UHGV virus genome: UHGV-0231044
From: a virus
Reading direction: 5' to 3' (one strand)
DNA: 12,171 bases
In this document: piece after piece, positions 2,363 to 5,052 of the stretch
How positions within the stretch are numbered: position 1 is the first letter of the stretch
How the letters are laid out: each line of letters opens with the position of its first letter
Program-made: the position numbers and the translations under genes
The notes under the pieces: generated by a model
Databases searched by the model: none
Seen by the model: the letters and a program-made list of their open reading frames with translations, nothing else
Told to the model about the DNA's origin: nothing

Positions 2363-2710
2363 TCAACTCACAGGAATGGTTAACGAAAGTGGCTGGCCGG
2401 TGTCGTTGTGCTGGCCGGTTAACGTGACCGTCATTCGCCCGTCAAAACTGCGCGCCGTAGTGACGGATGACAGGGTGACGCGGGGTTCCCATTTCAGCAC
2501 TGCCATGTAACAGGCGACCTTAATCTGCAACTCAAGCGCCGGGGTCTGTGGCTGGTCAATCATTGACGCCAGCAATGAGCCGTAATCACGACGCATCACC
2601 CGTGAGCCGACCGGCGTGCGCAGGATATCGCCGATACTCTGGCTGATATGCTCAAGGTCAGTGACAGTCAGGCCATCACTGCGATTCATTCCGAGATAAC
2701 GCGCTGTCAT
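2363..2710 (-). CDS. W: Baseplate wedge protein GpW (T4 gp25-like)
   Basis: 115-aa ORF (MTARYLGMNRSDGLTVTDLEHISQSIGDILRTPVGSRVMRRDYGSLL...), size and sequence typical of P2 gpW; 4-nt stop/start overlap with V. Confidence 0.9.
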   Translation of the reverse strand: MTARYLGMNRSDGLTVTDLEHISQSIGDILRTPVGSRVMRRDYGSLLASMIDQPQTPALELQIKVACYMAVLKWEPRVTLSSVTTARSFDGRMTVTLTGQHNDTGQPLSLTIPVS

Positions 2711-3336
2711 AGAGGTCCCCCGGTTGTGCCGCCGCTGTCGCCGGGGTGTTTATGGGTATGCAGTACCTTACCGTTTGATGAGAGCTCACCGCCGGTATGA
2801 GCGATGTTGCCGCGCATCGTCCCGCCCTTCTGTACTTCCAGCGTGCCGGTAATCAGCCTGTTGGTGCAGACCACCTCCGGTGTGTCCAGGGTGATGCGGG
2901 TTGACGCTTTCACCATGACCACCGGCACCGTGGCAGTAACAGAATCAGAAGCCGTCACGCTGGCCGTTTTAATTCCGCTTACCGTGAGTGCACTGGTTTC
3001 GGGTTCATACTCAATCACCGCCCCGTCAGGGAAACGGATATGCAGGGCATCAGACGACGCAGACGGCGCTGGGTTATCGCCGGAATAAATCCCCGGCAGA
3101 ACGAACGCCGTGTCGAGTTCACCGCCCACGGCCAGAATCAGCACCTGTTCCCCCACGGAAGGTGCCCACCATGTGCGCGAACGCCCAGCGCGATGGGTCA
3201 GCCACTGAAGCCAGTCGGTGCACATGCCGCCGGTCTGCACACGGCAGCGACCGGCATTAAGGTCGGTTTCGACGATAATGCCAGTGCGAATCATATTGCG
3301 TATAAAGCGAAGAATTTCATTGTATTGTGCATTCAT
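2707..3336 (-). CDS. V: Baseplate hub/spike protein GpV
   Basis: ORF track gives 2707..3414 but its first codon at 3414 is not ATG (TTG); first ATG is at 3336 (MNAQYNEILRFIRNMIRTGIIVETDLNAGRCRVQTGG...), giving 209 aa, consistent with P2 gpV length about 211 aa. C-terminal HTHKHPGDSGGTTG is the conserved spike tip. No obvious Shine-Dalgarno before 3336, so start is less certain than the rest. Confidence 0.85.
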   Translation of the reverse strand: MNAQYNEILRFIRNMIRTGIIVETDLNAGRCRVQTGGMCTDWLQWLTHRAGRSRTWWAPSVGEQVLILAVGGELDTAFVLPGIYSGDNPAPSASSDALHIRFPDGAVIEYEPETSALTVSGIKTASVTASDSVTATVPVVMVKASTRITLDTPEVVCTNRLITGTLEVQKGGTMRGNIAHTGGELSSNGKVLHTHKHPGDSGGTTGGPL

Positions 3337-3360
3337 TCGATAATAATGATTCTGTACAAT
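3332..3360 (+). promoter_or_regulatory. Candidate sigma70 promoter for the cargo gene (TTCATT - 17 bp - TACAAT), inside the 86-bp V/cargo divergent region
   Basis: Seen in sequence: -35-like ttcatt 3332-3337, 17-nt spacer, -10 tacaat 3355-3360 preceded by TG; about 60 nt upstream of ATG 3423. Prediction only; -35 is a weak match. Confidence 0.3.
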
Positions 3361-3422
3361 CTCGAAGTAAATCACACCACGATTTCTGGTGCACAGAACA
3401 ACAAGGGACAACAAAATCCATT

Positions 3423-4496
3423 ATGAGTACTTACTTTTTCTCGTCAGAAACAATGAAAGAATTGTTCAAAGATTATCTGGTCTTTTTGAACACGCTGACT
3501 CCCAGCACAAACTTTGAATCAAACAGAAACAAAATAATTGCTCAAGCAATAAACTTCATTTCCGAAAACCCTGAAGATTGGGACAAAAAATCCCAGTACA
3601 ACATTGCTATGATTGGCGACACCTTTAAAAGTTTCTTAAGAGAAAAGGGGGAAGATAACAACAGCATCAACCTTATATTCACTTGCTTTTTTAGATTTAT
3701 CATTGAACCAAGCATTCTCTCTCCGGAAATAGAGTCTCACTTTTCACCACTAAGAACCATCAAGGATTTTGCTCTGTATAACTATAATGAATTCGATGAG
3801 CGGAGCAGAGCACAGATAGACTTTTCTCTTAGAGAACTGCCATTAGCAATGGTTAAAGAAGTTTTAAGCTCCAGCAATGTTGACACATATAAAAAATACA
3901 TTGATAGTTTAAACGAAGGGCGTCAATTTTTCGAAAAGTGCGACTCCTTCTTAAAGGAGCAACATGCCAAAATAGAGTCAATTAAAGAGTCATTAAAAGG
4001 GTATGAGGTCGCATTTAATTTTGTTGGATTGTTTGATGGCTTTAATTCACTTGGCAAAAAGAAAGAAAGTGAAATCATGCTATCAAGAATAATTCTTATC
4101 ATCTTGGCTATAATCATTCCCTCCCCGCTGATATACTATGGAATGCATAAATTACCAACTCTGGAAACGACAAATGCTGCCACATATTTTATGTCAGCAC
4201 TACCTTTTGCATCAGTTACATTGATTTTTATGTATTACTTTAGAGTTGTACTGATAAATCATATATCGTTACGAACTCAGATTATGCAAATAGAACTCAG
4301 AAAGAGCCTTTGTCAGTTCATTCAGAGTTATAGCGACTATTCCTCAGAGATAAGGAAAAACAATCCGGAAGCGCTTTCAAAATTTGAAGACGTAGTATTT
4401 TCAAACATCATGCTATCCGATGATAAGATACCATCTACATTTGATGGTATTGAACAAATAGCATCGTTAATCAACGCATTGAAAAATGGCAAGTAA
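3423..4496 (+). CDS. Hypothetical membrane-anchored protein (357 aa), AT-rich cargo gene at the S/V (orf30-type) moron slot; candidate phage-exclusion/abortive-infection protein of unknown family
   Basis: Long ORF in strongly AT-rich DNA; ORF track extends to 3327 but ATG 3423 (MSTYFFSSETMKELF...) has AGGGA 12 nt upstream and avoids overlap with V start. Two hydrophobic helices near the C-terminus (IMLSRIILIILAIIIPSPLIYYGM and AATYFMSALPFASVTLIFMYYFRVVLI, about nt 4075-4265). Ends TAA 4494-4496 followed immediately by a hairpin terminator. No Walker, HxH, DEAD or nuclease-type motifs seen by eye. Confidence 0.8.
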   Translation: MSTYFFSSETMKELFKDYLVFLNTLTPSTNFESNRNKIIAQAINFISENPEDWDKKSQYNIAMIGDTFKSFLREKGEDNNSINLIFTCFFRFIIEPSILSPEIESHFSPLRTIKDFALYNYNEFDERSRAQIDFSLRELPLAMVKEVLSSSNVDTYKKYIDSLNEGRQFFEKCDSFLKEQHAKIESIKESLKGYEVAFNFVGLFDGFNSLGKKKESEIMLSRIILIILAIIIPSPLIYYGMHKLPTLETTNAATYFMSALPFASVTLIFMYYFRVVLINHISLRTQIMQIELRKSLCQFIQSYSDYSSEIRKNNPEALSKFEDVVFSNIMLSDDKIPSTFDGIEQIASLINALKNGK

Positions 4497-4500
4497 TGAT

Positions 4501-4530
4501 AAAAGGCCAATAACTGGCCTTTTATTTATT
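4501..4530. terminator. Rho-independent terminator hairpin (stem AAAAGGCCA / TGGCCTTTT, loop ATAAC, then ATTTATT); likely bidirectional for the cargo gene and the convergent late operon ending in S
   Basis: Seen in sequence: 4501-4509 aaaaggcca, loop 4510-4514, 4515-4523 tggcctttt (perfect 9-bp inverted repeat) followed by T-rich run; lies 5 nt after cargo stop and 70 nt beyond the S stop on the other strand. Confidence 0.6.
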
Positions 4531-4599
4531 AACGTAAAGATTCAAAATAAATCATACTAAATCAAATAATTTCATTCTTATATTCTCAGATCAATAAAG

Positions 4600-5052
4600 C
4601 TAGCGATTCAGGTGAGCCAGAATAATCTCTTCAATCATCTGCACATCCTCACCGGTAAAGCCGAGCAGAGGACGCGCCGGATAATCAATTTTCTTACCGT
4701 CTTTCCGGTTTTCTTCCGACAGACCGAACTGATGCACGCAGGCGATTTTCGGTGACTTCCCGCCGTAAAATTCCATTGATGCCTGCTCCGGGCTGGCGCG
4801 GATATGCAAAAAACGACTGGTGATAAGTTTCGCAAACATTTTTCGCTTAACACGACCGGTCTTTTTTCTGGCGCTCTGCTGCTGGCGTGGCGCGTAGGGT
4901 GTGCCGTCCGGGGCTTTCTGTGCCATCACCCGACGCTGCTGACTCTGCCGCAGACGTTTCGCCAGTTCGGCGCTCAGTCGCCGACGCCCTGACGGTGACA
5001 GCGATTCAGTCAGTCCGGTCAGCCGGTCTTCAAAACGCTTAAACTCATTCAT
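4600..5052 (-). CDS. S: Tail completion protein GpS
   Basis: 150-aa ORF (MNEFKRFEDRLTGLTESLSPSGRRRLSAELAKRLRQSQQRR...), size and sequence typical of P2 gpS; overlaps R by 8 nt. Confidence 0.9.
   Translation of the reverse strand: MNEFKRFEDRLTGLTESLSPSGRRRLSAELAKRLRQSQQRRVMAQKAPDGTPYAPRQQQSARKKTGRVKRKMFAKLITSRFLHIRASPEQASMEFYGGKSPKIACVHQFGLSEENRKDGKKIDYPARPLLGFTGEDVQMIEEIILAHLNR

Follow-up and report, generated by a model that had tools for sequence, protein, structure and literature searches.

An AT-rich gene in the S/V (orf30) slot of a P2-like prophage encodes a predicted inner-membrane protein of an undescribed family: a candidate single-gene anti-phage effector

Introduction

What is a lone, AT-rich gene doing between two structural genes of a P2-like prophage, on the strand opposite to the late genes? 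This question is raised by UHGV virus genome UHGV-0231044, a stretch of 12,171 nucleotides (the window; coordinates are window positions, except for those with an L-number, which denotes one of the family loci that we fetched). The window spans late genes of a P2-like prophage, those on the minus strand being I, J, W and V, then S, R, LysC/B/A, endolysin, holin, X, L, M, N and O. Between gpV and gpS lies the gene in question (3423..4496, plus strand), hereafter the cargo gene. An earlier note, based on reading of the letters by eye, had described its product as a soluble N-terminal domain followed by a two-helix membrane hairpin, and had suggested a layout of the kind seen in abortive-infection effectors.

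Here, we examined the gene, its slot, its family and the loci in which the family occurs. Our tentative proposal is that the cargo is a foreign gene in a P2-like prophage which encodes an inner-membrane protein of an undescribed family, acting as a single-gene, membrane-acting abortive-infection effector. In broader terms, genomic context suggests that members of the family are probably anti-phage or exclusion factors. The gene is lone, dispensable, mobile and AT-rich, it occupies a P2 slot for foreign genes, it has occasional defence neighbours, it can be retained after prophage decay, and it joins a variable cytoplasmic domain to a conserved membrane module; taken together, these features are best fitted by a single-gene, membrane-acting anti-phage protein.

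A foreign gene in the orf30 slot

The cargo gene is intact, with 357 codons and a stop codon, and its translation is identical to the 357-aa (amino acid) protein that had been quoted before. Its G+C (GC) content is 0.34-0.37, compared with 0.56-0.60 in the flanks. A copy with 99.5% identity was found in a complete P2-like prophage located between pflB and pflA in E. coli LR-45. The ratio of nonsynonymous to synonymous substitution rates (dN/dS) was 0.14 when the gene was compared with an E. coli allele of 95% identity and 0.24 in the comparison with E. albertii (0.29 for the N-terminal half and 0.11 for the C-terminal half). The cargo gene is real and under purifying selection. With regard to its start, some RefSeq records begin at Met11 while this open reading frame begins with the ATG at 3423; we favour the latter because Phe6 is invariant in 52 homologues.

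The site corresponds to the orf30 slot of P2, in which Orf30 (NP_046770) has the same position and strand. The orf30 region is one of three P2 regions that commonly hold horizontally acquired genes (PMC3091744); the other two, old/tin and Z/fun, carry exclusion genes. The cargo has all the properties of this positional class, being located between S and V, opposite to the late operons, foreign in GC content and dispensable. Knowledge of the S/V slot goes back to the P2 genome papers, and a prophage cargo that encodes a sensor-plus-transmembrane (TM) protein is of a familiar kind; recent studies of P2 hotspots have left the S/V site untreated.

Among 5426 complete E. coli genomes, the V-S region was present in 1583 (approximately 30%, which we read as the frequency of P2-like prophages), and 60 of these carried this cargo. 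In a spread sample of V-S records lacking it, we observed either an empty site (1155-bp span), an insert of orf30 size (2029 bp) or a few other spans. One such occupant was seen in E. coli A2 (L073:547-1332), a 786-bp gene for a hypothetical protein of 261 aa, which is the length of P2 Orf30, beside a gpV pseudogene lacking its C-terminus.

The same position is used across a wide range of hosts. Of 80 family loci on viral contigs from IMG/VR, 61 were between V/W and S/R, and 12 more had one P2 flank. Among the fetched loci, the immediate upstream neighbour was an opposite-strand gpV in 71 cases, and the immediate downstream neighbour an opposite-strand gpS in 68. Alleles in the slot may share only 36-50% identity, as in Pantoea, Yersinia phage vB_YenM_31.17, Pectobacterium, Erwinia, Citrobacter and Kosakonia. 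The left flank in our window is gene V (gpV, baseplate spike; 2707..3336, minus strand), whose first ~14 codons (3295-3336) are AT-rich and unlike those of P2 and of an empty-site E. coli prophage, the rest of V aligning closely. Thus, the exchanged module seems to reach into V. The right flank is gene S (gpS, tail completion; 4600..5052, minus strand). In E. albertii (L082 and L083:4157-4591), an IS200-type Y1 transposase gene was observed between the cargo gene and gpS.

Architecture and conservation of the protein

Six segments could be distinguished in the protein (all on the plus strand). The N-terminal region (aa 1-195, 3423..4007) is all-helical and predicted to be cytoplasmic; it comprises an eight-helix bundle plus a long helix (aa 152-194) and is variable in the family, with F6, W53 and E95 invariant. 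A conserved pre-membrane motif, AFNFVGLxxGFxxLGxxK (aa 196-216, 4008..4070), in which N199, F200, L203, G206, F207, L210 and K214 are invariant, precedes the first hydrophobic helix (TM1; aa 217-243, 4071..4151). A short, unconserved loop predicted to be periplasmic (aa 244-255, 4152..4187; mean top-residue frequency 0.15) leads to the second hydrophobic helix (TM2; aa 256-279, 4188..4259), which ends in a conserved YYFRV motif and in which P261, Y271, F273, R274 and L277 are at least 93% conserved. The remainder is a C-tail of ~80 aa (aa 280-357, 4260..4493), the most conserved part of the protein, consisting of a helix that continues TM2 and then the motifs KFEDVIFSNIM and KIPSTFDGIEQ.

The two strongly hydrophobic helices reported earlier were confirmed. 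Kyte-Doolittle (KD) values exceeded 1.6 only in the 19-residue windows beginning at aa 214-224 and 259-260; the peak of 2.40, located in TM1, was reached by 39 of 2000 shuffles of the protein, and both segments were hydrophobic in all 261 aligned members (best 19-residue KD at least 1.29; medians 2.28 and 2.05). The distance between the helices had been overestimated at about 25 residues, since it is ~10-12 residues end to end; the loop measures 9-17 aa across the same 261 members. It is poor in K and R residues: K+R counts averaged 3.3 ahead of TM1, 1.1 within the loop and 4.2 beyond TM2, in keeping with a hairpin that has both termini inside (N-in/C-in). On this sequence-based topology, the whole protein except for a loop of ~12 residues is predicted to be cytoplasmic, including the C-terminal tail that the earlier note had recognized after the hairpin.

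Structure prediction, a check which that note had proposed, was carried out with AlphaFold2 on a 52-sequence alignment. The model was all-helical, with a mean predicted local distance difference test (pLDDT) score of 80.6 and values above 90 over most of aa 10-150. In it, eight helices form the N-terminal bundle and are followed by a long helix (aa 152-197) and a helix entering TM1, and TM2 continues unbroken to residue 313. The N-terminal region is modelled as helical, as had been expected; its composition is rich in S/F/E/K/L/I rather than simply in K/E/N. Residues 330-350 had low pLDDT, yet high conservation, which would fit a segment that becomes ordered only in an oligomer or on a partner. 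No fold match was found for either the whole model or the N-domain.

Conservation is distributed very unevenly along the protein. The median pairwise identity was 0.24 for aa 1-195 versus 0.46 for aa 196-345, and the mean entropy was 1.68 in the motif of aa 196-216 versus 2.76 in the N-domain. Over aa 256-313 conservation had a periodicity of ~100 degrees, and the helix extending TM2 bears a conserved face formed by S282, Q286, Q289, R293, C297 and Q301. The conserved core consists of the pre-membrane motif, the end of TM2, its helical extension and the two C-terminal motifs, the N-domain being far more variable. The part most strongly conserved is TM2 with the C-tail, and not the N-terminal domain that the earlier note had called sensor-like. 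Distant clades aligned only over the C-terminal 200 residues (224 Klebsiella phage-plasmids, Moraxella, Undibacterium and Providencia), and no recognisable domain was found in the N-terminus of divergent members in which it is replaced. The Klebsiella phage-plasmids, of ~110 kb (224 records; L007:5572-6738), encode a 388-aa protein of such a distant clade that matches only aa 137-349, has a different N-terminus and lies opposite replication genes.

An undescribed family

The only library match of the protein was PHROG 9373, a family of unknown function (E 3e-134; aa 13-356 aligned to positions 7-387 of the 388-position profile). The family members fall into 348 clusters at 90% identity, all of them named 'hypothetical'; at 50% identity there are 927 representatives, nearly all of which are 350-370 aa long with a full-length match. 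Neither Pfam nor NCBIfam gave a significant family for the protein, or a consistent one across 52 members, and PADLOC-DB 2.0.0 (Abi, PD-T4/T7/Lambda, Rst, PDC candidates and others) yielded no family at E ≤10 for the protein. A profile search of PDB sequences had a best E of 0.28. Matches to DUF3810, Mlp, TrbE, BrkB and Cas proteins, which appeared in Pfam, NCBIfam and PADLOC searches with the protein and the 52 members, were discarded as scattered sub-threshold noise. These results agree with the earlier note, which had seen no enzyme signature by eye and could not assign the protein to a named family. The family is undescribed: it lies outside PADLOC 2.0 and Pfam and has no fold match.

Distribution beyond P2-like phages

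The family is not restricted to P2-like phages. Outside Enterobacterales, 51 of 54 loci in species-representative genomes were not in such phages. Lone family genes are present there in Gamma- and Betaproteobacteria, Campylobacterota, Desulfobacterota, Nitrospirota and Bacteroidota, and some of these non-P2 loci are integrase/primase islands. In 137 of 137 loci the GC content of the family gene was below that of its flanks (median difference -0.225), in hosts ranging from ~25% to 63% GC. Moreover, in Enterobacter ludwigii (L078:1124-2376) an intact family gene is located beside a 61-aa remnant of gpS, near chemotaxis and sucrose-utilisation genes, the remaining P2-like prophage being gone.

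To our family loci no conserved partner gene could be assigned, as none recurred among them. Two-component (9 loci) and ABC-exporter (7 loci) neighbours were considered as partners and rejected, because their numbers are about those expected by chance for such abundant families; three of these loci represent a single Beggiatoaceae lineage. In some non-phage loci the neighbours are defence genes, including GmrSD, an AAA_15/21 ATPase, a KAP NTPase, a type I restriction-modification S subunit, a C5 methylase and putAbiC. A PADLOC scan of 150 neighbour proteins recovered TIR effectors (3), PDC-S35 (2), ATPase-Toprim (2), HEC-06, JukA and dGTPase. In Vibrio brasiliensis (L047:1325-3956), a same-strand gene for a KAP-family P-loop NTPase shares 8 bp with the start of the family gene; at this locus alone is a two-gene operon suggested.

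Comparison with known systems

The natural point of comparison is P2 Orf30 itself, which resembles the cargo in being located between S and V on the opposite strand, AT-rich, nonessential and predicted to be a membrane protein of unknown function. However, Orf30 has 261 aa and a different arrangement of hydrophobic segments, and homology between the two was rejected (best BLASTP E of 1.3). Full-length membership in PHROG 9373 is likewise uninformative on function, as this PHROG carries no annotation.

A precedent is provided by lactococcal AbiZ, a single protein with two TM helices and no recognisable domain that raises membrane permeability and causes premature lysis (PMC13064643). This single-gene abortive-infection protein, whose two TM helices are predicted, speeds holin-dependent lysis; it differs from the cargo family in acting in Gram-positive rather than Gram-negative hosts. 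Furthermore, no PADLOC model matches any of the 52 members significantly, and the collection presumably includes one for AbiZ. Small TM modules thought to kill by membrane disruption are also found in effectors of signalling systems, such as CBASS Cap14/Cap15, Pycsar PycTM and the 2TM protein of retron Ec48, and TM-effector systems do occur in P2/P4 hotspots, as exemplified by the TIR+TM system of P2-like phage AC1 (Rousset et al. 2022; PMC9122126). Unlike the cargo family, these effectors use a partner enzyme or a nucleotide-binding domain. Around and within family members we found neither a partner gene nor a SAVED, cNMP or other ligand domain, no conserved neighbour that could be a cyclase or TIR generator was seen, and TIR accounted for only three of the 150 neighbour proteins. 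The layout of a single-gene membrane effector, i.e. a soluble domain and a small TM module in one polypeptide without a partner gene, is the one that the cargo displays.

Possible function and alternative explanations

Under the abortive-infection reading, the cargo protein would be made at a low level in the lysogen and would insert as an N-in/C-in two-helix hairpin. Its variable helical N-domain might keep the module of TM2 and C-tail inactive until a phage product, or a change induced by infection, is sensed. The conserved module could then oligomerise, using the C-terminal motifs and the conserved polar face on the helix that extends TM2, and might permeabilise or otherwise disable the inner membrane and thereby abort the infection. 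The earlier proposal of a defence role is partly supported, by context: the orf30 slot, the mobility of the family and the defence neighbours in some non-phage loci. The N-domain is variable but under purifying selection, so that 'sensor' should be taken as a presumptive label.

Several observations weigh against an anti-phage role. Library scans gave no homology evidence for any function of the protein, and with PADLOC models, including those of AbiZ type and of TM effectors, only scattered single matches were seen across the 52 members (E of at least 0.003). The dN/dS of the N-domain (0.13-0.29) indicates purifying rather than diversifying selection. At many non-phage loci all neighbours are housekeeping genes (for example tRNA synthetases, DnaK, ribosomal protein L13 and MurJ), and the enrichment for defence neighbours is a qualitative one, made without a background rate. 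A promoter search found no consensus sigma-70 site on the plus strand upstream of the cargo, and upstream regions showed no motif conserved between genera; since no cargo promoter was identified, we can only assume that lysogens express the gene. Alternatively, the strongly conserved C-tail might serve to bind a conserved partner in the host, in a role other than defence. Literature searches by UniProt, RefSeq or PHROG identifiers returned no paper, though a member may already have been tested.

Two other roles in the producing cell have to be considered, each of which we regard as unlikely. One is superinfection exclusion without cell killing, in which DNA entry or early steps of incoming phages would be blocked at the inner membrane. 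P22 SieA, T4 Imm and HK97 gp15 are examples of such exclusion proteins. A prophage cargo gene on the strand opposite to the late genes, encoding an inner-membrane protein and, within viruses, tightly tied to one phage lineage and one slot, is consistent with such a role. However, only an unconserved loop of 9-17 residues is predicted to face the periplasm, the presence of the family in non-phage loci of several phyla is hard to square with a protein that recognises a single injection apparatus, and no similarity to SieA, Imm, gp15 or other known exclusion proteins was found in PHROGs or Pfam. The other unlikely role is that of a non-defence accessory membrane protein, for example a modulator of envelope stress, lysis timing or a host membrane complex. 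Conservation that is highest in the C-tail motifs is what a conserved cellular partner would produce, the neighbours on chromosomes are often housekeeping genes, no defence model matches, and in P2-like phages the gene is two genes away from the lysis cassette. On the other hand, such a role is argued against by a sporadic distribution (60 of 5426 E. coli genomes), by AT-richness in every locus, by the presence of the family next to defence genes and on mobile elements of three kinds, and by absence from most P2-like prophages, which function without the cargo.

Two toxin hypotheses appear far less plausible. The ClyA/XaxAB/Hbl proteins resemble the cargo protein in combining a helical bundle with a hydrophobic helical hairpin between long helices, and an alpha-helical pore-forming toxin of this type, directed against other cells in virulence or competition, could be imagined; but the cargo is predicted to be an integral inner-membrane protein of its producer, and structural scores against these toxins were at background level, with no significant structural or profile similarity, which makes this idea highly improbable. 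It is similarly improbable that the gene encodes the toxin of a toxin-antitoxin addiction module in which a small RNA, or the product of a small unannotated open reading frame, serves as antitoxin. Mobile elements often carry small membrane-active toxins, and the cargo is a single unit with weak translation signals, its Shine-Dalgarno sequence being weak or distant. Nevertheless, the intergenic gaps around it are only 86 and 103 bp, an Rfam scan of the window found no family, no neighbour is conserved, and type I toxins do not resemble a protein of 357 aa in which a domain of 195 aa is structured.

We therefore return to a single-gene, membrane-acting abortive-infection protein as our preferred reading. 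A further and more doubtful step would be to regard the cargo as the founding example of an unrecognised group of single-protein membrane immune effectors, with more than 900 clusters at 50% identity in at least five phyla, in which a helical sensor domain without known fold would be joined to a killing module made of the conserved TM2 and C-tail. The old/tin and Z/fun regions have already given many defence systems, and orf30 is the third classical slot, without an assigned function. If this wider view of the family is true, the P2 S/V (orf30) slot would be a further antiviral hotspot beside them. If the protein is protective, this slot would be another place for mining of defence genes, and defence biology would gain a compact single-gene system of 1.1 kb with a new fold, whose clear division into a variable and a conserved domain would lend itself to domain-swap and escape-mutant work on the gating of membrane effectors. 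If it is not protective, a conserved, mobile, always AT-rich membrane protein present in several phyla would still need an explanation.

Flanking regions and other prophage cargo

The divergent intergenic region from the gpV start to the cargo start (3337..3422, 86 bp) must hold both the late pV promoter and the cargo promoter; the P2 annotation places an activator site and the pV start in the equivalent region. On the other side, between the convergent cargo gene and gpS, we found a symmetrical hairpin with an A-run and a T-run (4494..4531) whose predicted folding free energy (dG) is -16.2 kcal/mol (z -4.9; 0 of 200 shuffles as stable). An annotated P2 terminator is located at the matching place, and the hairpin is likely a bidirectional intrinsic terminator common to the cargo and the late operon.

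The complete prophage of E. coli LR-45 also carries genes outside the region covered by the window at the two other sites (L001:13752-14279 and 30687-33030), namely a pair encoding a reverse transcriptase and an AAA ATPase at the old/tin hotspot and a gene for a 175-aa hypothetical protein at the Z/fun site.
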